Assembly (NCBI GenBank): GCA_943370635.1
Contig: CALRRY020000012.1
Location: forward strand, 7,856-71,855
DNA length: 64,000 nt
Reading direction: 5' to 3'
DNA from: Variovorax paradoxus
GTDB lineage: Bacteria; Bacteroidota; Bacteroidia; Flavobacteriales; Flavobacteriaceae
In this document: positions 1 to 13,362 of the stretch, in pieces
Numbering within the stretch: the first letter of the stretch is position 1
Layout of the letters: every line of letters starts with the position of its first letter
Position numbers and translations under genes: made by a program
The notes under the pieces: generated by a model
Database searches by the model: none
Seen by the model: the letters and a program-made list of their open reading frames with translations, nothing else
What the model was told of the DNA's origin: nothing

Positions 1-2719
1 TGTTCCTGATGTGGGTTGAAGTATTAACTTCTCCACCTTCATCCGGATTTTGATTTAGTTTATTGTATAGTCCTGATGCCGTTGGCTCTTCTTCTTCATC
101 AAACATTTTGGCATCTTCTCCCAATGAACTGTGAATTAAGAACATCTTTTGGGCCGCTATTTCTCGTGATTTTACAATATCAGCACCTATCTCTGATGGG
201 AAAAAGTTATAAATGTATAATTCATCAAATACCTTTGCTCCAATACGATTTATACGACCTACTCTTTGAATTACCCTTGTTGGGTTCCAAGGAATATCAT
301 AATTGATAATAACACCAGCTCGGTTTAAATTGAAGCCCTCAGAAAGCTTGTCGCTAGTTAATAATACATCAAAGTGATTGGTTTGTGTTCCTTTGTATTG
401 TGCGTTATAGTCTGTATTTAGATTTTTAGCCAATTCTTTTGAAACCTTACCATCACAAACGATTAATCGTATTCCAAATTTCTCACGGAAATAAGGCTCT
501 AGGTGTTTTATAGTATCAACATATTCTGAAAATAATATTACTTTTCTGTTTTTGTCAGCTGCTAGAATGGCTTTTATTTCATCTGCTATACGTTCTCTTT
601 TTGGATCATTATCTACAATTTTCAATGCTGTCAATTGGTTTTGTATTTCCTGAAACACCACTATATCACTTTCTATATCTGCCAAAAAATCTGACTTTCT
701 TTGAAAATCATTTACATCATAAACTGTATTATTTTTAGGTACTTTTTTATTTAATAAGTCTTTTGAATATTCGCTTAAAACCCTATCAATATCATCTTCA
801 TCATACATTTTTATTTTATCAATCAATCCTCTGTCTAATATGTATTTACCGTTTGATTTTTCAATGAAATCTCTGACTACAATATGAACTTGTAAAAATC
901 TATCGATGGATTGGCTGAAAGCTCCAAAAGAGCTTTCGAAACGTTTTACTAATAAACGTCTCATAAAATCAAATAAGTTTTGTTGTTGTTGGAATTGTCT
1001 GTTTCCTTGTTCGTCTAACTTTTCTTCATCAACTATTTTTTCATAACTGAATGGCTGGTAAATTGCCCCTTTGAACCTTCCGTTTTCTTCAAAATATTCG
1101 TTTAGAATTCTGTCGTAAAAAGTGTTTTGTTCGTGTGTTAAATGATAAAATAATTCTACTGGGTCTTTTACTTTTGATAAATCTCCCACTTCTGCTTTAT
1201 AAATGTAATCTTCTTTTAAATCTAATCGGTTTCTACGGATTACTACAGATGAAATAATATTTTTGATTTGATTGGCTAACACTTTGGTTTCGTGTCGAAC
1301 GATATTAATATCAACTGGTAATTCCTTGTTTAGCATTGTCACATAAAGTGCTTCCGCCTTTTGTCTCTTTTGTGGTTTATTTGAATTCCAATTTTTAATG
1401 ATGTCAGAAAGTCTTTTATATTTGTAATTAAAACCACGAAACAATCCTTCTAAATTGTCATCAATCGTTATTCCAGATTTACCAGGAACAATAAATAATT
1501 TCAATAAGGAAAATATATCCGCAGGAGAATTATTAAAAGGCGTAGCCGTTAATAAAATAACGGTTCTGTCTCTACAAATAGTTAATAATGCTTCATAATC
1601 GGCAGTATCTTGGTTTCTGAAATAATGTGCTTCGTCGACAATCACCACTTCAATTCCTTTGGTTTGAATAGTATCTGCCAAATCTTCTAATTTTCCACGA
1701 CTTTCTACTTCCCAATCGTATAACTTAAAATCATTAATATATCCCCACCAACCCGAACTGTATGTTTTGTCACCTATTAATCCCGGAGGACAAATAACCA
1801 TTCCTCTTTTACCTAAATTTTTAGCGATTAATGAAGCAATTACCGATTTACCTAAACCAACTACATCGGCAATAATAACACCGTTGTATTCTTCAATTAT
1901 TGATAATGCTTGATTTACAGCATCGGTTTGATAACTGTATTTTTTATATCCGATTTCCTCCAGTAGGTTTTCTACTTCGGGTTTTATTTGTTTTTGTTGC
2001 TGTAAGTCTAAATAGGTTTTTAGTATTAAAACATACGCTTCAAAAGGTGTAACTGATGCTGCTTGAGATTTGTGCTGAATGAATTGAATAAGAAACTCTT
2101 TTCTGTTTTCGATTTCTGAAATAGGAATAGCTCGTTCCCAAAGTTCATCAAAATAGGTTTCGGCATCTACAAAACCATAATCTTTTATCTCCACATTAAA
2201 CTCTTCTTGACCTGATAATCCCGCACGTGTTAAATTACTACTACCTGTAATAAATTGCCCTGTCATTGCTTGTATTTCTGCCTGTTCTTCGTTTAATCGG
2301 AATAGGTATAACTTAGCGTGGTTTGAATTTTCGGTTTTGCGAATTATTAATCGTTTTTCGTTTAGCATTTGCAGAAAGAACTCTACTTGGTTGTAGAATG
2401 CTTCTGTGTCCATTTCTTCGTTGTTAATGGCATTACCCATTGAAGTCATAAACTGATTGAATTGGTCGTCTTGTGATTGTTCTTCTTCTTGACTACCGTG
2501 TTCAACAATTTTATTTAGAATTTGATCTACTTGTAGTCCAACCAATAATTTTAGTGTTAGTTTATCATTCTTTTTAAGATTTTCAAAGAGTTCTTGCCAT
2601 CCTGAAAAATAAAAGAAACCTACTAGAAATTTAAGTTCATCACTAATTCCGATTAATGTATTTAACCTCCCTTTTAGTGATTTATGTGTTTTATTATTGG
2701 TTATGAAATTGTTTGCCAT
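1..2719 (-). CDS. PLD-family nuclease fused to SF2 (SNF2-like) helicase; 3' end runs off the window (over 906 aa)
   Basis: Not in the ORF track. I translated from the ATG at 2719 (MANNFITNNKTHKSLKGRL) and the motif-bearing segments, down to base 1, stay in one frame. Motifs: HAKLY and GSSNLT (PLD half-site), ADVVGLGKS (Walker A), DEAH, TATP, SEGFNL, QRVGRINR. Confidence 0.92.
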   Translation of the reverse strand, partial: MANNFITNNKTHKSLKGRLNTLIGISDELKFLVGFFYFSGWQELFENLKKNDKLTLKLLVGLQVDQILNKIVEHGSQEEEQSQDDQFNQFMTSMGNAINNEEMDTEAFYNQVEFFLQMLNEKRLIIRKTENSNHAKLYLFRLNEEQAEIQAMTGQFITGSSNLTRAGLSGQEEFNVEIKDYGFVDAETYFDELWERAIPISEIENRKEFLIQFIQHKSQAASVTPFEAYVLILKTYLDLQQQKQIKPEVENLLEEIGYKKYSYQTDAVNQALSIIEEYNGVIIADVVGLGKSVIASLIAKNLGKRGMVICPPGLIGDKTYSSGWWGYINDFKLYDWEVESRGKLEDLADTIQTKGIEVVIVDEAHYFRNQDTADYEALLTICRDRTVILLTATPFNNSPADIFSLLKLFIVPGKSGITIDDNLEGLFRGFNYKYKRLSDIIKNWNSNKPQKRQKAEALYVTMLNKELPVDINIVRHETKVLANQIKNIISSVVIRRNRLDLKEDYIYKAEVGDLSKVKDPVELFYHLTHEQNTFYDRILNEYFEENGRFKGAIYQPFSYEKIVDEEKLDEQGNRQFQQQQNLFDFMRRLLVKRFESSFGAFSQSIDRFLQVHIVVRDFIEKSNGKYILDRGLIDKIKMYDEDDIDRVLSEYSKDLLNKKVPKNNTVYDVNDFQRKSDFLADIESDIVVFQEIQNQLTALKIVDNDPKRERIADEIKAILAADKNRKVILFSEYVDTIKHLEPYFREKFGIRLIVCDGKVSKELAKNLNTDYNAQYKGTQTNHFDVLLTSDKLSEGFNLNRAGVIINYDIPWNPTRVIQRVGRINRIGAKVFDELYIYNFFPSEIGADIVKSREIAAQKMFLIHSSLGEDAKMFDEEEEPTASGLYNKLNQNPDEGGEVNTSTHIRN

Positions 2720-2750
2720 CTTATTAATGCACTTATAATCTATTATTTAT

Positions 2751-4172
2751 TTATTTTTTGACAATATAGCCACCCGTTTTTGGAGCACCTGCAAATTCAA
2801 CTAAGTTATTCTCTTTTAGAATTTTCATATATCTTTCGACCGTGGATATTCCCTTGTCAATTTTTGAAGCTATATCCGGAACTTTTAACATTGGTTGATT
2901 GTTCAAAGCATTTAATATACTTATCAATTCTAATTTTACTCCCTCGTTTACTCCCTCAATATTTAATTTTACTCCCTCGTTTACTCCCTCGTTTACTCCC
3001 TCATATTTTTTACTATGAAAGACACCCGGAAAGGCTAATTTTAAAACATTATCGTTCTCAGACCAAACAGGCGGTTTGAATTTGTTTTTCTTGCAATCTT
3101 TAATAATACGCAGTGTTCCGCTACCAAGCATTTCAATATATTTTCTGATGAAGCATATTTGAGCAATATCTGGATTTCTTAAAATAGAATGATGTTCTGT
3201 TTTTAACTCTTGTAATGTTATACCATTAAGAAGGCCTCCGAAATTGCTGATTTCAGTTTTGTTTTCATAAATAGAAATTTGTAAAAACCCATTAACCGAA
3301 TTGTAATCACGGTGTACTATTGCATTTAAAATACCCTCACGAAAAGCTAACTCAGGGAAGTTTTTTCTTTCTTCTCTTAAAATGCCTTCCACTTTTATTG
3401 ATTTGCCAAAAATGGCTTCTATGTATTGTAGAACCTCGTTGATATTCTTGAAGATGTTACCATCAAATATTTTATCATCAATGAATGAATTGGAAGATTT
3501 GTTTCCTGGATAAACTGTAATTCTAATTTTAGATTGCGGAATAAAACGAGTAGGGTGTTTGCCAAAAAGAACCATACAAGCATTGGTAATATTGCCGTTT
3601 TGAATTAATCCTAACTGAATAAGGAAGTCTTCAACATCCAGAAATTTAGCCTCTTTTTTATATTCTAAATAGGAAGAAATTGTTTTGTTTATTTCAACAA
3701 AATCTAAATCTTCTAATTCAGCACCAAGAACCGCCATTCGCTCCCAATTGAAATCGGCTTGTTTTCTGTCTGATATTAAAACATTTAAAGCATTTTCTTT
3801 TGATGACTTTGTTTGTTGTCCGGCTCTATTGTATATTGTGTTATTGTATGTGTAAGGTTTTCTTGCTCCTTCCCAAACACTTACTAATACTAATTCTCTG
3901 TTTTTATAGATTACTTTTTGAACCGCAATTGGTGCTAATGGTTTTATACTCTCCACAAGAAAATTTTGAAGATTATCTACCATTTCATCGGCATTGTGAA
4001 CACCTACTATTTTTTTATCATTATCAACACCTACAATTAAATCACCACCTTGTGTATTAATAAAAGCTGTAATTGTTTTAGCAATTGTATCGGTATTAAA
4101 AGAAGTTTTAAACTCCAATCTTTCACTTTCATTTTGTTGGAGTAAATTATCAATAATAAAACTATTCTCCAT
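2751..4172 (-). CDS. Schlafen/AlbA_2 domain + RecG-C-like ATPase (HATPase_c_4) + C-terminal winged HTH protein
   Basis: N-terminal ESERLEFK and AFINTQGGDLIVGVD (AlbA_2/Schlafen); FREGILNAIVHRDY and RNP..IEMLGSG (HATPase_c_4); C-terminal HTH-like ISTVERYMKILKE..GAPKTGGY. Confidence 0.85.
   Translation of the reverse strand: MENSFIIDNLLQQNESERLEFKTSFNTDTIAKTITAFINTQGGDLIVGVDNDKKIVGVHNADEMVDNLQNFLVESIKPLAPIAVQKVIYKNRELVLVSVWEGARKPYTYNNTIYNRAGQQTKSSKENALNVLISDRKQADFNWERMAVLGAELEDLDFVEINKTISSYLEYKKEAKFLDVEDFLIQLGLIQNGNITNACMVLFGKHPTRFIPQSKIRITVYPGNKSSNSFIDDKIFDGNIFKNINEVLQYIEAIFGKSIKVEGILREERKNFPELAFREGILNAIVHRDYNSVNGFLQISIYENKTEISNFGGLLNGITLQELKTEHHSILRNPDIAQICFIRKYIEMLGSGTLRIIKDCKKNKFKPPVWSENDNVLKLAFPGVFHSKKYEGVNEGVNEGVKLNIEGVNEGVKLELISILNALNNQPMLKVPDIASKIDKGISTVERYMKILKENNLVEFAGAPKTGGYIVKK
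2935..3003. repeat. Five copies of a 12-bp unit (TTTACTCCCTCR) encoding EGVN/EGVK tetrapeptides
   Basis: Units at 2935, 2947, 2968, 2980 and 2992; protein EGVNEGVNEGVKLNIEGVNEGVK. Confidence 0.95.
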
Positions 4173-4794
4173 CGTTTTCTTCTTTATAGGTTAATACTCT
4201 TTCAACAAATTGCAAGTCAGAAAACTGTGCATTGATATAGATTAGCATTTCATCTAAACGGTAAAATTCCTGTGCCCAATTACCATTTCGTAAAGTAACT
4301 GGAACGTGATTTTTTATTACATATTCATAAACCTCAATACTTCTTTTATCAAATAAACGCTTATCATCAATAACCAATCCATCAAAAAATGCTTTGTCTT
4401 CAAAAACACTCTTCTCATCAATTTTAAACTTCATTTTTTTAAATAGGTTCCGAGCAAAAACAACGTCTCTATGTACCAAAAACCAGTATGGTTTTTTGAG
4501 TTCGATGGCTTTTTTAATTTCCTCAAAAGTGATGTTCTTTTCTCCAATGTTACCTGTGCCATAATAGCCTCTAATAATACCTAAAAACAAATCGCATTCC
4601 TCTACAGCAGCTAAACAGTTGTCTAAATTTGACAACTTAGGATTTACTTTGATACTGCCGTGATGTGAATTGAGCACATCATAACCCAACATTGTAAGTT
4701 GGGCTACAATTTGAGACAATTGGTCTTCAAAACCATAAACGGTAGAGCCTACCATTATTTTTATCTTTTTTTGTTGCTGCTTTTTCTTTGCCAT
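4162..4794 (-). CDS. Stand-alone DUF4062 (TIR-like / nucleoside deoxyribosyltransferase-like fold) protein
   Basis: IMVGST..FED, CLAAVEECDLFLGIIRGYYG, ITFEEIKKAIELKKP match the DUF4062 pattern, including the conserved Glu. Confidence 0.8.
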   Translation of the reverse strand: MAKKKQQQKKIKIMVGSTVYGFEDQLSQIVAQLTMLGYDVLNSHHGSIKVNPKLSNLDNCLAAVEECDLFLGIIRGYYGTGNIGEKNITFEEIKKAIELKKPYWFLVHRDVVFARNLFKKMKFKIDEKSVFEDKAFFDGLVIDDKRLFDKRSIEVYEYVIKNHVPVTLRNGNWAQEFYRLDEMLIYINAQFSDLQFVERVLTYKEENDGE

Positions 4795-7700
4795 TATTTT
4801 ATGCTATAATTATCATACTCCTGCTCACTTAAACCAAAGTCTTTATCTACCACCAAAACTTCTTCATAAGTAAGCTCGTAGAGTTTGTAAACCATTAGGT
4901 CGATTTTGGCTTCTAAATCAGTAGTGTCAATGTTATCTTTTTTTAAATTTAAGATTTCATCGGCTATTTTTACAAACTGACTTTGAGTTATAGTGTCTGC
5001 AATCTTAATAGGTATCTTTCTTAAAAAGGTTAGTTTTACCTGTGCAAAAACCTTTCCGCTTTCAGTTATTAAAAGCTTATAGAGAAAATTTCCAAATTTT
5101 GAATTTAAAATTGATAAAATATATTTAAGATTGTAATCTTTATCATTATTAATAATTGAATGTACGGAATCTATACAATAAAACTCTTCTTCTTTGAAAG
5201 TAGCAATTAAATCAGCAGACGTTTGACGAAGAAAAATTTTAGGACTTTTAAAAAATTTATCATCTCTTTTACACCATAACCACTCACCATATTCAATAAA
5301 ACCATCATTCCAACTTTCTTCATACCTATTAAAGTCTTTACCTCTCATTACTGGTTTTGATGATTTTGATATTATTGAATTATTAAAATAATTTATCTTC
5401 TCACCTTGTACCTTCGCATAGACAGTAATCCCTTGTGTGCTAAAAGTTATTGACCCAAGTTCCTCAGTATTGGTTGAGTATTTTTTTAGAATTTTATAAT
5501 TATCAATTGTTTTGAAATCAAACGAATTTGAATCATAATCTTCTTTATCTAATTCATACTTACTTAATAAATTGAGATCATTATTTTTAATTTGATATTT
5601 TGTAAATTTGGTTTTTGTATGTTTTTTTTCGTTGTTTTTTATTAAGAAAGAAATCGAACTATCTACAATAGCTGTTTCAAAAACATTTTCAATCCTTTCT
5701 GTAACCTCAATAATATCAGTATGCTTTCTAATATAATTTCTTAGTCCCTGGAATTGTGTATAAACCGTAAAAGTATGAGGCGTTATGTAAGAAAGTATTC
5801 CTTTTTCACTTAAATAATCTATACCTATCTTAAAGAAGAAAATGTATAAATCATAATGTTTCGATAAAACATCTTTAAATAAATTTTGAAAAAAATCTTT
5901 GTCTTTTTTTGTTGAAACTTCAACGTAAGGTGGATTACCTATAACTATATCAAATTTTTCTACACCAAACATCCAATCAGGGTCAAACCATTTAGAACCT
6001 TCATTGCTAAAAGGGTTCCAATGATACAATTGACTTTCTCTAGCGGTTAAATTATTTGTGTTATTGGTTTTATTTATTTTGTTTTGAACGGCTTTAAACT
6101 TACTTTTTAAATCAACTTTTTCAACTGGTGTTGCTTGTAAATAAGCATTTCTTATTTTTTGTAATTCAATCAAAATCTCTTCATTTTCCCCAAAGTCAAA
6201 ACTCATTGATTTACCAACAGTATTTCCTTTGTCTAAACTAATTAAAGTATTTGCTGTCACAAACTTAAATTCTAAATTAGGCAAAGGTTCAATCCCTCTG
6301 TTTTCCGCTTTATCATCAATATTTTCATCTATAATTAAAGAAAGAAAACTTCTTAATTTAGAGATTTCAGCTGCAATGGGTTGAATGTCCACACCATAAA
6401 TAGAGTGTTGAATAACGCCCAATTTACGAGCATAATCATTATTTGAAAATTGAAGTTTTCGCTTAAAATCATTTAAGTAAATAGAATCTAAAACCTTTGA
6501 AGCTTTACTTATTTGCATTTCTCTCCACCATACAGCTTTATCATCTAGTTTTTTTAGAATTTTGATAATTTTATGCAATACTCCCATAGGAAAAGCTCCC
6601 GAACCACAAGCAGGATCTAAAATTTTCACTTCGCTTAAGGCTTCGAGTATTGCGATGGTTTCTTTTTCGTTGAACGGGTTTTCGGTATCGTCTTTTAGCA
6701 ATACTTCCAACTGTTCTTCGTCTTCAATATTGGTTTTGGTTTTGATGTACTGCAATAGTGATTGTTCTACCATATAATCAACAATCTCACGAGGTGTATA
6801 GAAACTCCCTGTAGATTTACGAGCACTTTTCTCGGTATCGGGGTCAATCTCTGCCAATAGATTTTCGAAAATAGTTCCTAACATTTCCGGGTCAATACTT
6901 ACCTCAAAATCGTTAATGCTATTTTCATCAATGGTAAAATTGTATTGTTCTAGTGTTTCAAAGAAATCTCTAAACCATTGGTTAGGTATGTTCAGTGCAA
7001 AATTTTGACTGTGAATTCCTTTGCTGTCTTTTGGGAAAAAGTCATCATCTTGAGCTTCAAAAAGTCCACCATTTAAAAACGGTACAAACTCGTGATTGTT
7101 CGGTAACACATAGGGTTTTCTGTCTTCGTGCTTTTTGTTTAAAACTAAAAAGAATAATTTTTCTAGAATGGAATGATAGTAATTGTGTTGGTCGTTATTG
7201 ACACTTGCCACCATATTTGACGAAAGCCATTCTTCGGGAATTAACGGAACTCCACTGTCTGACTTCTTATTTTTTAGAAACCAACAAAAAATAGTTCTAC
7301 CAATTAATCGTACTGCGAATTCTTGGTATACTTTTCTATTCTCGGTAGGTGTTGATGGAAGTTGCAAGCAGGAATTAAAAGAAACTTCTTTTTTGTTTAT
7401 ACTTACTTTACCTCCAATAAGACTATAAAAAGCGGTTGCAATCTCTTCATAGAATTTTTTGTTTAATTTTTCAACACTAAATGCTTCTTGAATGTCTTCT
7501 AACGAGCCAAAATTACATCCATTAATTCTGTTTTTGAATGTTTTGTTTGTTCTTGATGGGTCAACAAAATAAGTATAACGTTTCCAATTGGTAAACTTTT
7601 GGTCTTTGTTACCATAATTTTTACGGATGAATGAAAAACGGAAGCAATCATTACTATCATAGAAAATAAAAATAGCACCGTCTTTAAAATCTTCTTTCAG

Positions 7701-7961
7701 GACTTTTTTGGCAATTTCAAACTGTCGTTTCTTTGAAGAGCGTTCCGATAATACTCCTTGAAATTTACAGGCAAAAACAATTAATTCATCTGAGTTACTA
7801 AATTCTACTTCTCCAATTTTTTGTAGTTCAGAGAAATGAGCAAAATCCGCATCTTTTAGTATGTAGTCTAGGTTCTCGCTATTTGGAGAAAATGAGGAAA
7901 TTTTATTTTTAAAAAAATCAGCAATTGATTTTACAGAGAAATTTTGAATTAGTTTGTCCAT
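4794..7961 (-). CDS. Type IIG/Eco57I-like N6-adenine DNA methyltransferase with C-terminal target recognition domain
   Basis: GSFYTPREIV, ILDPACGSGAF (SAM binding), DIVIGNPPY (motif IV), TaqI_C-like TRD (PKIFLRQT, YILSILNSK). The first M in the ORF track is a TTG; the ATG at 7961 is taken as start. Confidence 0.9.
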   Translation of the reverse strand: MDKLIQNFSVKSIADFFKNKISSFSPNSENLDYILKDADFAHFSELQKIGEVEFSNSDELIVFACKFQGVLSERSSKKRQFEIAKKVLKEDFKDGAIFIFYDSNDCFRFSFIRKNYGNKDQKFTNWKRYTYFVDPSRTNKTFKNRINGCNFGSLEDIQEAFSVEKLNKKFYEEIATAFYSLIGGKVSINKKEVSFNSCLQLPSTPTENRKVYQEFAVRLIGRTIFCWFLKNKKSDSGVPLIPEEWLSSNMVASVNNDQHNYYHSILEKLFFLVLNKKHEDRKPYVLPNNHEFVPFLNGGLFEAQDDDFFPKDSKGIHSQNFALNIPNQWFRDFFETLEQYNFTIDENSINDFEVSIDPEMLGTIFENLLAEIDPDTEKSARKSTGSFYTPREIVDYMVEQSLLQYIKTKTNIEDEEQLEVLLKDDTENPFNEKETIAILEALSEVKILDPACGSGAFPMGVLHKIIKILKKLDDKAVWWREMQISKASKVLDSIYLNDFKRKLQFSNNDYARKLGVIQHSIYGVDIQPIAAEISKLRSFLSLIIDENIDDKAENRGIEPLPNLEFKFVTANTLISLDKGNTVGKSMSFDFGENEEILIELQKIRNAYLQATPVEKVDLKSKFKAVQNKINKTNNTNNLTARESQLYHWNPFSNEGSKWFDPDWMFGVEKFDIVIGNPPYVEVSTKKDKDFFQNLFKDVLSKHYDLYIFFFKIGIDYLSEKGILSYITPHTFTVYTQFQGLRNYIRKHTDIIEVTERIENVFETAIVDSSISFLIKNNEKKHTKTKFTKYQIKNNDLNLLSKYELDKEDYDSNSFDFKTIDNYKILKKYSTNTEELGSITFSTQGITVYAKVQGEKINYFNNSIISKSSKPVMRGKDFNRYEESWNDGFIEYGEWLWCKRDDKFFKSPKIFLRQTSADLIATFKEEEFYCIDSVHSIINNDKDYNLKYILSILNSKFGNFLYKLLITESGKVFAQVKLTFLRKIPIKIADTITQSQFVKIADEILNLKKDNIDTTDLEAKIDLMVYKLYELTYEEVLVVDKDFGLSEQEYDNYSIK

Positions 7962-8072
7962 CAAAGTATATTTTGTGAGCTAATGATTAACTTGAAAAAT
8001 GTAAAGTTGTAAATGTATGAAAAAGCAATGGAAAGAAAAATGAGGAAAACCGTAAACGGATGAAATAAACAG

Positions 8073-8296
8073 AAAAATAGGGCAAAAAAAAATAGGGCAA
8101 GGAGGGTAACCAAATTTGGAGTAAAAGATATTTTATATTTTTATAAAATAAAAAACAGATTTATATGGCTGTTTGAGTGCAAAGTGGAACGACAACTTTA
8201 TTAATTTGCGTTGTTGTGGTCTTATATTACCCGATTGTTTGAGAAGAAAAAAAACAAAAAATGTTTGTTGCGTTTTTTGGTTACCCTGCCTGCCCT
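8073..8296. repeat. 21-bp inverted repeat (19/21 match) plus 13-bp direct repeat around an AT-rich core; candidate element replication origin
   Basis: agggcaaggagggtaaccaaa (8094-8114) versus tttggttaccctgcctgccct (8276-8296); aaaaatagggcaa at 8073 and 8088. Confidence 0.6.
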
Positions 8297-8340
8297 GTGA
8301 AAATAATGTAAAATGAAGTAATGCAAAGAAGAAAACACAA

Positions 8341-8369
8341 AAAAAGTGGAAACGCTAGTTTTCCACTTT
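8341..8369 (-). terminator. Intrinsic terminator after the primase/VapE gene
   Basis: aaagtggaaa/tttccacttt stem with a U-tract on the minus strand, just past the stop at 8392. Confidence 0.7.
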
Positions 8370-8391
8370 AAAAATGATGATTTTTTGTTGT

Positions 8392-10485
8392 TTATTCTTC
8401 AACCATTTTGTTTCTGTTATCAACGTCTTCCCAAGTATTTTCTATTAAAGCGTACACTGCTATTCCGTTCTTTTTTAATCGAATGAAGTTGTGTTTTTTT
8501 AATGCTTTGCCTAATTTGTTAATTGTGCCATCGGTGATGTTTATTTTAGCTTTTTCAGCCAGTTTGGCTGCTATTTGCGAAGCATTGAGGAAAACATTAG
8601 CCTTTTCTCTTTGGCAAGGTTCAAACCACGTTAAAAGCAATTCTTCTTCTGGACTGTGGAGTTGGTATTGTTCGTTATTTTCGGTGATGTTTTTGATTTC
8701 TTCCTGGTCGAACCAATATCTAAAACCACTTTTGAAAAGAAACAATGCTTGTGAAAAAGCCAGATTAATATCTACATTGTGTTGGTATTTGATGCCTTCT
8801 AATTCAAAACAAAGAAACCTTCTGCTTCCTGTACTGTCGTTTAAGAACTGTGCTGTATTGACACTTCCGGCAAACGATGCCCTTCTGGGCATTGTTTCGT
8901 TATTGTGTCCGTAGGCTTTTCTCATTCTTATTTGAGTTTTTGTAATGATTTCTTTGAGTGATCCAATTTCGGAACGGTTTAAGTTTTCTAGTTCGTCCAA
9001 GTTGATTAACATACATTCTGAAAGCTGCACCAATGTATCTTTGTTGTTTGGGTTTATGGTCCCGGAAAATAGATATTCTTTCAAAGGTTTTGGAACCAGT
9101 TTTTCCACCCAAGTTGTTTTACCCAGTCCTTGCTTGCCACTGAATACAATTACCGTGTGATTGATTACTTTATCATCAAGGACACAACCCACCATTGCCA
9201 CTAACCATTTCTTGAAACATTGCTGCCAAAGGTCTTGTTTTGTAGTTGTGATTGTGTTTGCTAATTCAGTAATATAATCGGTCTTTTCATCATAAGAGGG
9301 CAAATTAAAAAAGTAATCTTCAAATGGATTGAACAGTACACAAAAATCAGAATACAATAAATTTCGTAATGAAGATAGGTTTGTTTTAATTCTACCTTTT
9401 AAACACTCTCGGAGCATTGAATTTTCTATAAAATCATTCATCACATTCCACTTTTTTTTACCAAAATATTGGAACTCTAATTTTCCAGATACTATGTTGT
9501 GCCGAAATACATATTTGTTTGATAAAAACAACTCTAAACGGTCAATTTGGGTTGGTTTTGGTTTGTCTTCGTCGTCTTCGTCAGTAGTATCTGTTATTGA
9601 AAAATTATCGTTCTTTTTGGGTTTATTAGGTTGTTCAAATTTCTCATTTTTGCCAAACTCGTGGATGTTTCCGTAGGCACTATTGACTGCTTGTGTTACT
9701 TCTTTTTCATCATATCCAAAATCTGTTAGAATATATCCCAAAGCATCGTTTAATGCAACTCCTTTTCGGTTTAGGTTGCACGCTAGTTGGTGTACGAATA
9801 CGTTGCGACTACCATTCACAAATTGTACTTTTTTTTCGGTGAAATTTACGCAATGGTTGTAAATGGCTTCGCTGTTGTCGGTTGTTGGTTGTTGGTTGTC
9901 AGTTTGAGATTGCTTCACTTCGTTCGCAATGACATCTTCTTTAACTTCACTCGCAAAGACGGTAGAGTTTTCATTGAGATACAAATTTTCATCCCAGGAA
10001 TAAAAGCATAACCTAGTTAAATCTTTGCCTGATTTGTCTATTTCTAATTTTAAAATATTCTCATAATGAGCTTGAACCTTTAGGAACGTTTCTTTATGTT
10101 CGGTTTTTGGTGTTTCTATTTTTACAAGAATTTTTAAACCATTTCCAGAAGGACTAATGAAACACGCATACGTGAACTCACTTTGTGCAGCTATACTTTT
10201 TGATTTTTGTAAATCGGTTGTACTTAATTTGTCAATATCTAAGATTATAAACTTTGAATATTCTGTTAGGAATTCTAATTTACGACCACCAACAAATTTT
10301 CCTGAAGGTGTGAATGCTGAAAGTGATTTTTTTGCTTTGTTGTATGCTTCCTCTTTCTTTTCAGCCAATGATTTACGCAAGTAAATTATGCCGGGTTTGT
10401 ACTTTCCAGTTTTAATTTCCTCCAAAATTGTTGCAATTGTTTTGTGTTCTACAACTTCGTTGAAATTCTTGAATATTGTTACCAT
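8392..10485 (-). CDS. BT4734-like/VirE-N primase-like domain + PriCT-like domain + VapE P-loop helicase (element replication protein)
   Basis: FTPSG.F, IILDID, FISPSGNGLK (BT4734-like N-terminus); GSRNVFVHQLAC (PriCT-like); GKQGLGKT Walker A, LINLDEL Walker B, RKAYG..MPRRASFAGSVN, DSTGSRRF (VapE). Confidence 0.85.
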   Translation of the reverse strand: MVTIFKNFNEVVEHKTIATILEEIKTGKYKPGIIYLRKSLAEKKEEAYNKAKKSLSAFTPSGKFVGGRKLEFLTEYSKFIILDIDKLSTTDLQKSKSIAAQSEFTYACFISPSGNGLKILVKIETPKTEHKETFLKVQAHYENILKLEIDKSGKDLTRLCFYSWDENLYLNENSTVFASEVKEDVIANEVKQSQTDNQQPTTDNSEAIYNHCVNFTEKKVQFVNGSRNVFVHQLACNLNRKGVALNDALGYILTDFGYDEKEVTQAVNSAYGNIHEFGKNEKFEQPNKPKKNDNFSITDTTDEDDEDKPKPTQIDRLELFLSNKYVFRHNIVSGKLEFQYFGKKKWNVMNDFIENSMLRECLKGRIKTNLSSLRNLLYSDFCVLFNPFEDYFFNLPSYDEKTDYITELANTITTTKQDLWQQCFKKWLVAMVGCVLDDKVINHTVIVFSGKQGLGKTTWVEKLVPKPLKEYLFSGTINPNNKDTLVQLSECMLINLDELENLNRSEIGSLKEIITKTQIRMRKAYGHNNETMPRRASFAGSVNTAQFLNDSTGSRRFLCFELEGIKYQHNVDINLAFSQALFLFKSGFRYWFDQEEIKNITENNEQYQLHSPEEELLLTWFEPCQREKANVFLNASQIAAKLAEKAKINITDGTINKLGKALKKHNFIRLKKNGIAVYALIENTWEDVDNRNKMVEE
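9874..9960. repeat. REP-like half palindrome, a degenerate second copy and four GTTGTYR heptamers, all in frame in the VapE linker
   Basis: gagattgcttcacttcgttcgcaatgac at 9906-9933 (VIANEVKQS); degenerate copy at 9940-9960 (VFASEVK); heptamers at 9874-9901. Confidence 0.7.
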
Positions 10486-10614
10486 TTAGGAGTAATTAGT
10501 GATTAGTAAATTGCTTTGCCAGTTCGCCTCAATTGAGGCTCGTGTGTGAATAGTTTTTAAGTTTGTGCCTGTCTTACAGACACAAACTTCACAAGTTCCA
10601 TTACAATCGCTCAT
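10486..10614 (-). CDS. 42-aa Cys-rich small protein (MSDCNGTCEVCVCK...)
   Basis: ATG lies 1 nt after the xis stop, and its TAA abuts the VapE ATG, filling the gap exactly. Confidence 0.55.
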   Translation of the reverse strand: MSDCNGTCEVCVCKTGTNLKTIHTRASIEANWQSNLLITNYS

Positions 10615-10615
10615 A

Positions 10616-10897
10616 CTATCGTCCTTTAAATGATTTGTTGTAATGCTCTTGTAGTAGCTTTTCAACATCGGAAAGTTTGTAGTAGATTTTGTTTCCCACT
10701 TGACTGAATGAAATTTTGCCTTCGTCTCTCCAGGTTTGAGCTGTACGTTTTGAAATTTTCATTAGTAATAGGAATTCTTGATTGTCTAAAAAGGTTTCCT
10801 TCTTTGGGTCTGCCTTGATAGAAATTTGAGATTGAATAGTGTCTAATTTGCTCATTAGATCTGTGAACTGGTCTTTTGTGAAGATAATTGCATCCAT
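10616..10897 (-). CDS. Excisionase-like helix-turn-helix (HTH_17/MerR-like) protein
   Basis: FLDNQEFLLLMKISKRTAQTWRDEGKISFSQVGNKIYYKLSDV; typical of Bacteroidetes integrative elements; likely start MDAIIF. Confidence 0.85.
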   Translation of the reverse strand: MDAIIFTKDQFTDLMSKLDTIQSQISIKADPKKETFLDNQEFLLLMKISKRTAQTWRDEGKISFSQVGNKIYYKLSDVEKLLQEHYNKSFKGR

Positions 10898-10954
10898 TTT
10901 TAAAAGTTTTAAATTGTTATGGTGCAAATGTGAGCAGTTGAAAAAAGTCTTTTA

Positions 10955-10980
10955 GTCCCCACTTGGTCTCCAGGGGACCA
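10955..10980. promoter_or_regulatory. Nested inverted repeats upstream of the xis operon; candidate operator
   Basis: gtcccc...ggggac and tggtc...gacca, a GC-rich patch in AT-rich DNA. Confidence 0.4.
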
Positions 10981-10986
10981 TTTTGT

Positions 10987-11895
10987 TTAAAGCAATTTGT
11001 CGATGTCCAGTCTTTTATGGGTGTTCGGACGTTTATCCTCTTTGGAAGGTTTGAGGATTGTTTTGACTGTTAGGGGACTTATTTCTTTACCTTCCTTATC
11101 CAAGAAGGAATTTACAATCCAATCCGCTAGATCGTTTGTGTTTTCGTCAATATAAGGTTTGCCATCAATAAAAAGTTCTCGATTTAATTGGTAAAACATA
11201 TCTACTAATTGGTTTAGATTTCCATTGAATTTTAGTTTTTTGTTTGGTTTTGGGCTGCTTAATTTTAGTTTTTGAGCTTCTTCAATTGCCGCTTGTATTT
11301 TTTGTAAGGCATAAATATTCTCTATTTCTTTGGTGCATTGTGCATCATAAAACGGTGTCTTTTGATTGATAAACTCGATATTGGCTTGTTGGTATTCAAA
11401 CATTTCTTTGGTTAGCAACAATATTTTTTGATTGTCATCATTGATATTATCCAACTGCTTTTTTAACTCATAAAATGAAAAATGACGGTCTTCACTTTCA
11501 GCATTAATGAATTTTTTAGGAGTTTTTGCAACTGGTTCTTTTACTCTCAAAGATTGCAACTCAGTTCGTTTTTTCTCGATTAAAAAATACAATTTATTGT
11601 ATCTACTCATAGCTGTTTTGGAGCTGAAAAAGGCTTCATTATTGGCTAATAATTTTTCGAGTTTACATATCCATATTTCCGGGTTCTTCACCTGGTTGAA
11701 TTGATAATCAATAAATGCAGGAAATTGAGATTGTTTGAGTTCTAGAATTTTTGCAATTAAAGCATTGCAATAGTTTTGAATGTTGATTTTTTCTTCAACG
11801 ATTATATCAAATAAAGGATTTTTGGCTAGAGCCGCAGGCACTGCCAATAATTCTACAAACGGAGCTGTTTGCATATTTTGATCCTTTGAATTCAA
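10987..11895 (-). CDS. Hypothetical element protein; position and C-terminus suggest an RteC-like regulator
   Basis: 302-aa ORF between integrase and xis; C-terminal helical domain LVDMFYQL...ISPLTVKTIL. Confidence 0.5.
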   Translation of the reverse strand: MNSKDQNMQTAPFVELLAVPAALAKNPLFDIIVEEKINIQNYCNALIAKILELKQSQFPAFIDYQFNQVKNPEIWICKLEKLLANNEAFFSSKTAMSRYNKLYFLIEKKRTELQSLRVKEPVAKTPKKFINAESEDRHFSFYELKKQLDNINDDNQKILLLTKEMFEYQQANIEFINQKTPFYDAQCTKEIENIYALQKIQAAIEEAQKLKLSSPKPNKKLKFNGNLNQLVDMFYQLNRELFIDGKPYIDENTNDLADWIVNSFLDKEGKEISPLTVKTILKPSKEDKRPNTHKRLDIDKLL

Positions 11896-12062
11896 ATTGT
11901 AGTATGTTTTTTTTGGTGTTCATTTAGTATTGAAAGGTAATTAAAAGCGTTTTTAAATTGGTTGCTTTTTGGAAGTCCTAGTGTTTTCTACTAGAGTTCG
12001 TTTATCACTCGTTTCGAATGCTTTAAAAATTACTTGTTTACTCTGTTGTAAAGTTATAAAAT

Positions 12063-12088
12063 AAAAAAAATCCTTGTTAAAGGATTTT
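12063..12088 (-). terminator. Intrinsic terminator after the integrase
   Basis: aaaatcctt-gtta-aaggatttt stem with U-tract on the minus strand. Confidence 0.6.
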
Positions 12089-12144
12089 AGTTGAAGTTAT
12101 TAACAATCGTTTAAGGTCAATAAAATAAGCACTTAACACGAAAT

Positions 12145-13362
12145 TTAAAAAATATAGTTGTCTACAGCTTTGTCCAGTTCTTCGCTGATGATTTTGGCAT
12201 ATACTTGAGTGGTGCTGATGTCACGGTGGTCCATTAATTTAGAAACGTGCTCAATTCTCATTCCGTTATTTAACGCATTGGTTGCAAAGCTGTGTCTTGA
12301 TAAATGGAAAGAAAGGTCGAAAGGTAATTTTATTTTTACTCCCATTTTTTTAAGATGCCAGTTTGCCAATTTATTAAAAGCTGCTGTTTGAAAATATCGT
12401 TTTGCTTCGCTGTTCAAATAGCCTTCTTTGTCCATAATTATCGGAAAGATAAAATCATCGTGATTGGCGTTTTCCTTTTTGTATTTTTCTAAAATATCGA
12501 TAGCCACTTTACCAATTTTGAACTGGTGTACTCTTCCAGTTTTACGAATGTGTTTGTTGATTTTATGTTCTGCTTCATTGTAATTGGAATATTGCATTTC
12601 GATAACATCACTAAAACGCAAACCGCCCGCATAGATAGAGAAAAGGAATATATCCCTCCACATCATCGCTTTTTTGCCCTCAGTTAGCTTTAAATTGGTT
12701 AATGCATCTATCTGTACTTTATTAAGAAATAATCTTTTAGAAGAGCTGATTTTGAGGGTTATTTTGCTAAAAGGAAACATAGTTTCAGGAATTACTTCCT
12801 CCCGAATTGCATCCCTGAATATGGTTCCGAGCACAATTATGGAAAGGCGTTGAGTTGTATCACCGTTGCCTAAAGTATCTCCTAAATGAAATTTATAGTC
12901 GTTTAATAAAGCTACCGTAATTTCATCAAAATATACATCCTTTGTTCCCATATATTTTTCAAATTTATCAACCTGAGAGGTGTAAGCTCTGTAAGTGGAA
13001 TAAGAAACAGTGCTTTTAATTTTCTCTAATCTCTTTCTGGCATATTCAAAAAAGTTTGGCACTTCTTTACCCTTTATGGCTTCTTTGAGCTTTTTAACCG
13101 AAACGGTTTTGATTTTACGTTCCATATCGGCAACCTGACCTTCAGCATCTGCAATCTTTTGAGATAATGCAGCATTCATCCTAGCACTGTTTGAATGGTT
13201 CTTTTTTACTTTCTGCTTTACTTCATCCCACTCGTTCTCTTTAAGCTTCACTCCAGCAGTGATAAATTTCGTTTTTCTATCTTTTATAATTCGGATATAC
13301 AAAGGGCTGTGTCCGGTTTGGTCTACCTGATGTGTTCTTAAAATTAGTTTTACTGATGCCAT
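12145..13362 (-). CDS. Site-specific tyrosine integrase (Bacteroidetes Arm-DNA-bind_5/SAM_5 type)
   Basis: LYIRIIKDRKTKFI arm domain; GGLRFSD (Arg), KTG (Lys), SFHLSRHSFAT (HxxR), HRDISTTQVY (His/Tyr). Confidence 0.95.
   Translation of the reverse strand: MASVKLILRTHQVDQTGHSPLYIRIIKDRKTKFITAGVKLKENEWDEVKQKVKKNHSNSARMNAALSQKIADAEGQVADMERKIKTVSVKKLKEAIKGKEVPNFFEYARKRLEKIKSTVSYSTYRAYTSQVDKFEKYMGTKDVYFDEITVALLNDYKFHLGDTLGNGDTTQRLSIIVLGTIFRDAIREEVIPETMFPFSKITLKISSSKRLFLNKVQIDALTNLKLTEGKKAMMWRDIFLFSIYAGGLRFSDVIEMQYSNYNEAEHKINKHIRKTGRVHQFKIGKVAIDILEKYKKENANHDDFIFPIIMDKEGYLNSEAKRYFQTAAFNKLANWHLKKMGVKIKLPFDLSFHLSRHSFATNALNNGMRIEHVSKLMDHRDISTTQVYAKIISEELDKAVDNYIF

Follow-up and report, generated by a model that had tools for sequence, protein, structure and literature searches.

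A methyltransferase and a PLD-nuclease/SNF2-helicase fusion as probable subunits of an ATP-dependent restriction-modification-type system on a Bacteroidota integrative element

The window analyzed here is a stretch of 64,000 nucleotides (nt) of Bacteroidota DNA (G000:C12:7856-71855) from a genome that is 99.99% complete, with its left flank read as C12:1-16000. Its left end encodes MT, a large N6-adenine methyltransferase that includes a recognition domain, and HEL, a fusion of a PLD-type nuclease with an SNF2-type helicase. MT and HEL probably belong together as subunits of one ATP-dependent defence system of the restriction-modification type, and an integrative mobile element carries their genes. 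According to the list of open reading frames (ORFs), every gene within 1-7964 lies on the minus strand. The MT frame, 4794..7964, comprises 1056 codons from a TTG, and an ATG one codon further in, at 7961, gives a protein of 1055 aa. The frame 2..2719 on the same strand (906 aa) is open at the left edge of the window; once the left-flank DNA is read, HEL has a full length of 1120 aa, and its gene has its end 643 nt beyond the left edge. At this locus, MT and HEL are separated by a DUF4062 gene and a Schlafen-family gene, co-oriented with them and tightly packed; the DUF4062 gene shares 1 nt with the stop of the methylase gene and 11 nt with the Schlafen gene (Table 1).

Pfam assigns to HEL the domains PLDc_2 (aa 125-194), SNF2-rel_dom, ResIII and Helicase_C. 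A preliminary description of this DNA had proposed a PLD half-site fused to an SF2 helicase, starting at 2719 and longer than 906 aa; its Pfam domains and all of the motifs that had been named are indeed present. The nuclease part carries NHAK at aa 133-136, GSSN at 159-162 and GQEE at 170-173, and this HxK...GSxN...E pattern places it in the PLD/HKD superfamily, with a PLDc_2 score barely over the cut-off. There is a single HKD half-site, which had been likened to that of BfiI-type nucleases and in which, as had also been pointed out, the Asp four residues past the Lys is absent; E173 follows N162 by 11 residues, the same spacing that Nuc and BfiI have. Proteins with a single HKD half-site have to dimerise for one active site to be formed, as these two nucleases do. 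Across 20 homologues of 63-90% identity, H134, K136, G159-S-S-N162 and E173 are invariant, as are the helicase motifs GLGKS, DEAH, TATP and QRVGRINR, and the invariance of the PLD catalytic residues argues that the nuclease of HEL is active. SNF2 proteins translocate on double-stranded DNA, and the PDB sequence matches of HEL are CHD1, ISWI, DDM1 and RapA. Proteins of the HEL family are about 1120 aa long and go merely by the name of "helicase-related protein" in their sources. The best PADLOC matches are to the DrmD and BrxHI models, and most of the protein is covered by the PADLOC model "C3a139 HKD+Snf2" (6e-26), which originates from a study that surveyed the neighbours of type III CRISPR (PMC6546367). 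At the C-terminus, Pfam matches neither SRA nor DUF3427 nor another reader domain, and the last 270 aa (AF2 model, pLDDT 76) have no sequence or fold match in the PDB. Two HEL homologues (G121:C11:16689-20048 and G441:C1:235629-239000) each contain one in-frame TAA and are either decaying copies or products of sequencing errors.

MT, which begins with the ATG at 7961 and matches the Pfam families Eco57I (4e-31), TaqI_C (7e-21) and N6_Mtase above threshold, corresponds to the co-oriented 1055-aa N6-adenine methyltransferase with target recognition domain of the preliminary description. Methylases of the gamma class that have a TaqI_C-type domain recognise short sequences, and the base that they methylate is adenine. 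PADLOC labels the protein REase_MTase_IIG (9e-84), and the models of the MmeI spacer (MmeI_hel) and of MmeI_Mtase match weakly and below threshold. No NCBIfam model reaches its cut-off for MT or HEL, with the PglX equivalog giving MT 97 bits versus a cut-off of 500. The conservation profile of 38 homologues divides MT into five parts. A conserved N-terminal domain (N-domain, aa 1-165) and a helical spacer (166-330) precede the catalytic domain (331-800), and the hypervariable recognition domain (801-1000) comes before a C-terminal helix that is again conserved.

Pfam matches the N-domain in 0 of the 38 homologues, nuclease families included, and a conserved D..(D/E)XK motif was not found among them either; the strand that corresponds to (D/E)XK bears R109-F-S111, and the next strand K128-R129. 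Compared to the PDB, the AF2 model of the domain (pLDDT 83) has no Foldseek match at E<=1e-3, nuclease or other, and its profile finds nothing below E=0.08, with MmeI aligning over the spacer alone (E=0.14). On this evidence we consider it unlikely that a divergent nuclease is hidden in the N-domain, which would make MT a true Type IIG enzyme, and that HEL is a second-line or processive degrader, dispensable for the first cut. Such a view could nevertheless draw on the near-invariant residues D95 and D103, on the alpha-beta-beta-beta-alpha order of the AF2 model, which fits a restriction-endonuclease-like core, and on the position of the domain, which is that of the nuclease domain in MmeI-type enzymes. 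We read MT as probably lacking a working nuclease of its own, with a very divergent one as a possibility.

A scan for HEL in which each species was represented by one genome gave at least 580 stretches that encode it, and from these we retained 80 loci with 53-97% identity. They come mostly from Bacteroidota, with others from Ignavibacteriota, Chloroflexota, Proteobacteria, Cloacimonadota, Marinimicrobia and Balneolaceae. Upstream sequence of 5.5 kb or more is available for 40 of them, and in 35 of these 40 HEL is preceded by an MT homologue that is complete and co-oriented; four of the other five have C-terminal fragments of MT or are cut by the locus edge. MT stop and HEL start are separated by -3 to 4512 nt; in seven loci the two genes practically abut (-3 to 17 nt), with other conserved genes absent, and downstream of HEL nothing is conserved across the 80 loci. 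Because this set had been chosen through HEL, we ran an unconditional test on 401 Bacteroidota genomes that were drawn evenly and independently of HEL, using a HEL profile (E<=1e-40) and a profile of the 165-residue N-domain of MT. The N-domain was found in 30 of these genomes, HEL in 34 and both in 28, where chance would give about 2.5, and in 27 of the 28 shared genomes MT and HEL are co-oriented on the same contig, roughly 0.1-5 kb apart. Their order is MT-to-HEL in the clade of the window and HEL-to-MT in other clades. Six genomes have HEL but no N-domain match; in four of them an MT-family gene is next to HEL, and in one HEL lies at a contig end. Even a plasmid of Allomeiothermus (Deinococcota) with 40% HEL identity and one of Parabacteroides with 33% retain the pairing. 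HEL was found in 1 of 60 relatives besides the source genome, and the MT-HEL locus is accessory and mobile, with a patchy distribution among close relatives. Two variants of the arrangement were seen: in one genome, HEL is followed by two tandem MT genes (frames of 1516 and 1138 aa), each with an N-domain (G178:C1:2214929-2224945), and at another locus (L091, on G063:C1, 8988-17133) a split MT (263 + 794 aa) is followed by a 1096-aa ORF outside the HEL profile that may be a different partner protein.

In the 401-genome sample, the N-domain marks those methylases that are adjacent to HEL, and its divergence goes along with that of HEL as well. Over all 703 pairwise comparisons, the identity of MT aa 1-165 and the identity of HEL correlate with a Spearman coefficient of 0.71, compared to just 0.14-0.28 for the spacer, core and recognition domain of MT. 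The N-domain correlates with its own catalytic core at 0.35 and the spacer with the core at 0.91; as the pairs are non-independent, these correlations carry no attached probability, though the contrast between them is large. The N-domain was found in 698 proteins among 1.84 billion cluster representatives, 374 of them at E<=1e-10, and the best 150 matches lie at residues ~2-170 of proteins that are 1000-1270 aa long when complete. These observations suggest that the N-domain is the part of MT that is tied to HEL, most simply as a docking or licensing adaptor. Synteny across phyla and an N-domain that tracks HEL also lend support to the earlier proposal of a compact two-subunit restriction system distinct from Types I, III and IIG, with restriction as its presumed activity. 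It is quite improbable, in turn, that the two genes are independent neighbours, with MT as a self-sufficient Type IIG/IIL enzyme or orphan methylase and HEL as a SauUSI-like Type IV enzyme directed against modified DNA, since their pairing is near-universal, occurs in both gene orders and spans phyla. SauUSI-like PLD-helicase fusions do work alone (PMC12707154), PADLOC does call MT a REase_MTase_IIG, and the C-terminal 250 aa of HEL, which have no assignment, could be a reader domain; however, neither a nuclease motif or fold in MT nor a reader domain in HEL was found.

The specificity of MT appears to change by several routes. At three loci (L003, L004 and L011), the first 330 residues of MT are 85-96% identical to the MT of the window and the recognition domain 23-26%, and at two others (L006 and L010) the N-domain is 70-84% identical and the spacer and core 30-38%, which indicates that MT is a mosaic. 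Four metagenome runs from wastewater, sludge and plant material contain near-identical DNA for positions 1 to ~4900 and ~6700 to 8400 and mostly lack ~5040-6440. In one contig of run X4, 4913-5929 (aa 678-1017) are swapped for 982 unrelated letters, with breakpoints at the NPPY codons and at the C-terminal helix of MT. The recognition module is thus exchanged on the window's own backbone. In addition, a serine invertase gene (Resolvase, 1e-33) lies beside the MT gene in 15 loci, mostly in the MT-HEL gap, and opposite-strand copies of the MT 3' end are additionally present in six loci. At L012, L019, L022, L054, L074 and L081, the invertase is ~200 aa long, and the inverted MT 3' fragments, recognition-domain cassettes of 99-394 aa, lie with it in or beside the gap. 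Together, the invertase and the inverted MT 3' cassettes look like a specificity shufflon, and an arrangement matching these loci has been reported by Milman et al. (PMC9881135). The window's own MT-HEL copy has no invertase. Such shufflons on MT in relatives, together with the sequence similarity of HEL to RapA, might point to a phasevarion, i.e., chiefly an epigenetic, phase-variable regulator with defence as a secondary function and HEL as a RapA-like remodeller of chromatin or RNA polymerase. We regard this as very improbable in view of the conserved nuclease of HEL, the invertase-free copy in the window and the setting of the locus, which is patchy among close relatives and lies in a defence island on a mobile element together with DarTG and an SMC/LmuB-like ATPase.

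The genes between MT and HEL differ from locus to locus. The pair found in the window, DUF4062 plus Schlafen-ATPase, occurs in the gap at L008 (70% and 57% identity) and L074 (73% and 57%), and Schlafen-ATPases lie in the gap of 10 loci, alone in the eight besides these two; relatives of the Schlafen gene are missing at most other loci, and the DUF4062 gene has no match among the PADLOC models. Elsewhere, the gap is occupied by DUF6088+AbiEii, AbiEi+AbiEii, an AAA_14-DUF4143 ATPase, Bro-N, YhcG/DUF1016, one gene without assignment plus a Fic/DOC gene, DarTG (L015, L072 and L078) or, as judged by eye, a HipA-like gene or an MqsRA-like pair. As the gap genes are interchangeable, they are riders rather than subunits, and the DUF4062 and Schlafen-ATPase genes are independent cargo in a recurrent insertion hotspot. 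One contig of metagenome run X3 joins 2719 directly to 4816, with 30 nt on one side of the joint, and we tentatively take it for a form without cargo, with the stop codon of MT overlapping the start codon of HEL (TAATG). A leftover copy of the MT 3' end in front of HEL was considered and dismissed: the local alignment score of 22 was reached by 40 of 500 shuffles, which leaves nothing but the shared start ATGGCAAA.

If MT and HEL are subunits of one system, as we consider probable, MT would combine methylase and specificity subunit in one polypeptide, read a short target via its exchangeable TaqI_C-type module and mark host DNA with N6-methyladenine. At unmarked targets, it would recruit or license HEL, probably through the N-terminal 165-residue domain, and HEL would act as an SNF2-type translocase on double-stranded DNA that tracks along it driven by ATP. 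The half-site of HEL would be active in a dimer alone, and the cut would be made when two HEL protomers or complexes meet, an idea that follows a proposal for MtsD, the corresponding effector of the MANTIS system, and a report for SauUSI. We put forward this collision-triggered cleavage as a tentative detail. Such a mechanism would follow the same logic as Type ISP enzymes and the MANTIS working model, except that it involves two proteins and no AAA+ loader. Our data show directly which domains and intact motifs are present, that the genes are paired, that MT has evolved as a mosaic and exchanges its recognition module, and that partners known from DISARM, MANTIS and BREX are missing; in this scheme we infer methylation, restriction, the contacts between the proteins and the trigger of cleavage.

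Several points weigh against this interpretation. Methylation, restriction and protein contact are read from sequence, and the adaptor role proposed for the N-domain is derived from a correlation on non-independent pairs. The conserved D95 and D103 and the strand-helix topology of this domain are compatible with a divergent nuclease fold. MtsD has so far neither cut DNA in vitro nor stably bound MtsABC (bioRxiv 10.64898/2026.09.23.753747), so the cleavage model is borrowed from a model and not from a result; and since the MANTIS methylase needs an AAA+ loader, of which there is none here, recruitment must differ. Finally, two kilobases of cargo part MT from HEL at this locus, and some relatives have a fragmented MT or an in-frame stop in HEL.

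A more specific view goes beyond the subunit reading, and we hold it to be possible but on balance doubtful. An IIG/PglX-like methylase might have replaced or inactivated its own nuclease with the ~165-residue adaptor, which would license a dimerising PLD-SNF2 motor-nuclease without an AAA+ loader. The junction between the genes might serve as a landing site that co-transcribes toxin-antitoxin and abortive-infection cargo as a second layer of defence, and the whole might form a distinct and widespread class.

The HEL family is present in about 8% of the sampled Bacteroidota genomes, with relatives in Chloroflexota, Ignavibacteriota, Proteobacteria, Deinococcota and other phyla. Annotation as "Type IIG enzyme" plus "helicase-related protein" splits the system, and defence inventories therefore miscount it, crediting the methylase with a nuclease that is probably absent and ignoring the real effector. 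The pair also offers the simplest setting, with two proteins and no AAA+ loader, for studying how a methylase hands over an unmodified site to a PLD-helicase, a question that is likewise open for MANTIS, BREX and DISARM; the co-evolving N-domain is a concrete candidate for the interface. What the window adds is an explicit test of a methylase N-domain that travels with a helicase, a natural swap of the recognition module on the same backbone and a clear view of the cargo hotspot between the genes, in which genes carried along by restriction operons are conveniently catalogued by nature.

On the right, the pair is bordered by the VapE/primase gene of an integrase-bearing element (8392-13362), with MT and HEL directly behind it. 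At L004, L006, L047, L062 and L079, MT and HEL likewise come after a run of ORFs that, by their sizes and the clusters they share, look similar, and the pair seems to be a recurrent first cargo of such Bacteroidota integrative elements. A tRNA attachment site near the island was found neither in the first 20 kb of the window nor in the 7.9 kb to its left, and a scan for promoters and terminators returned counts near the shuffled background at this locus of AT-rich Bacteroidota DNA. To the left of the window, HEL is followed by a 151-aa ORF, an 809-aa SMC/LmuB-like ATPase, DarG, a 231-aa gene and DarT. The 151-aa ORF begins 9 nt behind HEL and has a sub-threshold GIY-YIG match, and the ATPase lies 178 nt beyond it (PADLOC LmuB 1e-32, mad3 6e-18); these two (L002, 4139-7202) may represent a small module of the Lamassu kind in which no LmuA is recognised. 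The 231-aa gene interrupts the DarTG pair (L002, 1520-4032, left of the window), in which DarG has 227 aa and a macro domain and DarT is 379 aa long, including a 187-residue N-terminal extension without a family match. We rejected the 151-aa ORF, the ATPase, DarG and DarT as further subunits: none of them recurs next to HEL in the 80 loci, and DarTG is just gap cargo in three.

Table 1. Coordinates of the genes, domains and motifs at the locus (window positions unless stated otherwise).
Feature	Position	Strand	Basis or remark
HEL, PLD-nuclease::SNF2-helicase gene	1..2719; whole gene G000:C12:7212-10574	-	first 906 of 1120 codons in window
PLD/HKD nuclease domain of HEL, aa 1-200	2120..2719	-	PLDc_2 28.1 bits, cut-off 27
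PLD half-site residues H134, K136, G159-S-S-N162, E173	2201-2323	-	invariant in 20 homologues
SNF2-type SF2 motor of HEL, aa 260-870	110..1942	-	SNF2-rel_dom, ResIII, Helicase_C
HEL Walker A GLGKS, aa 288-292	1844-1858	-	
HEL DEAH, aa 362-365	1625-1636	-	
HEL motif III TATP, aa 391-394	1538-1549	-	
HEL motif V, aa 788-795	335-358	-	
HEL motif VI QRVGRINR, aa 818-825	245-268	-	
Schlafen/AlbA_2 + HATPase_c_4 + winged helix-turn-helix cargo gene, 473 aa	2751..4172	-	Pfam
DUF4062 cargo gene, 210 aa	4162..4794	-	Pfam DUF4062 7e-13
MT, gamma-class N6-adenine methyltransferase with own recognition domain, 1055 aa	4794..7961	-	Pfam and PADLOC
MT N-terminal family-specific domain, aa 1-165	7470..7961	-	candidate docking adaptor for HEL
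MT helical spacer, aa 166-330, MmeI/PglX-like	6975..7469	-	MmeI_hel in 19/38, DUF7814 in 14/38 homologues; helical in AF2 model
MT catalytic domain, aa 331-800	5565..6974	-	motif I and NPPY
MT motif I DPACGSGAF, aa 450-458	6591-6617	-	
MT NPPY, aa 677-680	5925-5936	-	
MT exchangeable specificity module, aa 678-1017 (post-NPPY half and TaqI_C-type recognition domain)	4913..5929	-	

Compared to described systems, class 1 DISARM has in common with this locus a large PglX/DrmMI-like adenine methylase together with a PLD nuclease and an SNF2 helicase, and DrmD models are the best match of HEL in NCBIfam as well as in PADLOC. It differs in that the PLD and SNF2 parts are fused here and DrmA and DrmB (DUF1998) are missing; the DrmD equivalog NF038317 gives HEL 122 bits versus a cut-off of 610, over aa 575-955 only. 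The preliminary description had made its reading depend on whether drmA or drmB lay beyond the left edge. Neither is encoded in the 16 kb that include the DNA left of the window, nor elsewhere in the genome, which disposes of a DISARM system completed there, and the genes downstream of HEL complete no named system. The preliminary description had compared the locus with DISARM, but the closest characterised relative is MANTIS MtsD or SauUSI. PF09369 (DUF1998/MZB) has 0 matches in the source genome, with the control positive in 8 of 14 genomes; PF04465 (DUF499) is absent from genome and locus and PF06634 (DUF1156) from the genome, each with a positive control; and PF12635 (DUF3780) was not found in the genome, a weak negative given that its control was silent. 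The sole PglZ match in the genome is a lone 542-aa frame on another contig (G000:C8:43656-44234), probably a PorX-type response regulator and not part of BREX. MANTIS/Hma or BREX partners elsewhere in the genome were therefore discarded, and with neither drmA/drmB beyond the edge nor DUF1998, DUF499 or DUF1156 in the genome, the system is neither DISARM nor MANTIS.

The same absences bear on the idea of a BREX- or DISARM-like exclusion without cleavage, or of an incomplete system that needs host factors or the embedded cargo. MT does resemble PglX and DrmMI, the best PADLOC matches of HEL are DrmD and BrxHI, and the chemistry of restriction is still unclear for BREX and MtsD. Even so, we give this idea only a small chance, as the invariant PLD catalytic residues argue for an active nuclease, BrxC/DUF499 and DrmAB are absent from the genome with its lone PglZ on another contig, seven loci have abutting MT and HEL genes with no further conserved gene, and the genes downstream of HEL are not conserved. 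BREX itself shares with MT the PglX-type methylase, whereas PglZ, BrxC and other BREX genes are not in the MT-HEL locus. Type I systems differ more broadly, with no HsdS or HsdM architecture present here, a PLD nuclease instead of a PD-(D/E)XK HsdR, and a motor of SNF2 type.

Among MtsA-MtsD of MANTIS (formerly Gao_RL / Gao_29, related to Type-2 BREX; PMC12839542), the effector resembles HEL in its N-terminal single-HKD PLD domain followed by an SF2/SNF2 motor, and it likewise works with an N6-adenine methylase that sets specificity. MtsD has the same architecture and is a dimer with one PLD site, as seen by cryo-EM (bioRxiv 10.64898/2026.09.23.753747). Compared to the models NF042964 (PLD anti-phage; 101 versus 1100 bits) and PADLOC PLD_Helicase (2e-14), which we assume to stand for MtsD, HEL matches over the C-terminal helicase lobe alone. 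MANTIS further differs in needing the DUF499 AAA+ loader MtsA, the DUF3780 protein MtsB and the DUF1156 methylase MtsC, which is unable to bind DNA alone, whereas MT is of the Eco57I/MmeI/PglX type with its own recognition domain. SauUSI, a Type IV enzyme, has the same order of PLD and helicase, and fusions of this type act alone (PMC12707154); it works without a methylase partner and reads modified cytosine by an SRA domain at its C-terminus, whereas HEL has no match to a reader and its methylase is conserved. ARMADA II (bioRxiv 10.1101/2025.09.15.676423) is also among the nearest described systems, each of which has some defining trait that is missing here.

MT alone can be compared with Type IIG/IIL enzymes (MmeI, Cj0031) and BREX PglX, with which it has in common the spacer, a gamma-class methylase with NPPY and a C-terminal recognition domain, besides phase variation and recognition-domain exchange (PMC9881135, PMC4889913). 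It differs from Type IIG/IIL enzymes in that no PD-(D/E)XK motif in cis and no match to the MmeI nuclease domain were detected and in having a separate motor-nuclease as partner. The literature that we found contains no paper in which the pair is named or tested, apart from a passing mention in PMC9881135, which is also the only place where cd09178 was found.

CglI and NgoAVII, which the preliminary description had named, have a PLD nuclease that works with a helicase ATPase, but the small PLD protein and the helicase are separate there and the methylase is a C5 enzyme. Type ISP enzymes (LlaGI, LlaBIII) combine a nuclease of the Mrr-type PD-(D/E)XK kind, an SF2 translocase acting on double-stranded DNA, a gamma-class adenine methylase and a recognition domain, and couple cleavage to translocation. 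This is the same functional logic as that of MT and HEL, but in one polypeptide instead of two genes, and with Mrr in place of PLD, a motor that is not SNF2-type and no extra N-domain on the methylase. As a case of ATP-dependent, methylation-based restriction with a PLD-helicase effector, the system of MT and HEL is not categorically new, and it most likely resembles a split Type ISP enzyme with an effector of the MANTIS/SauUSI type.

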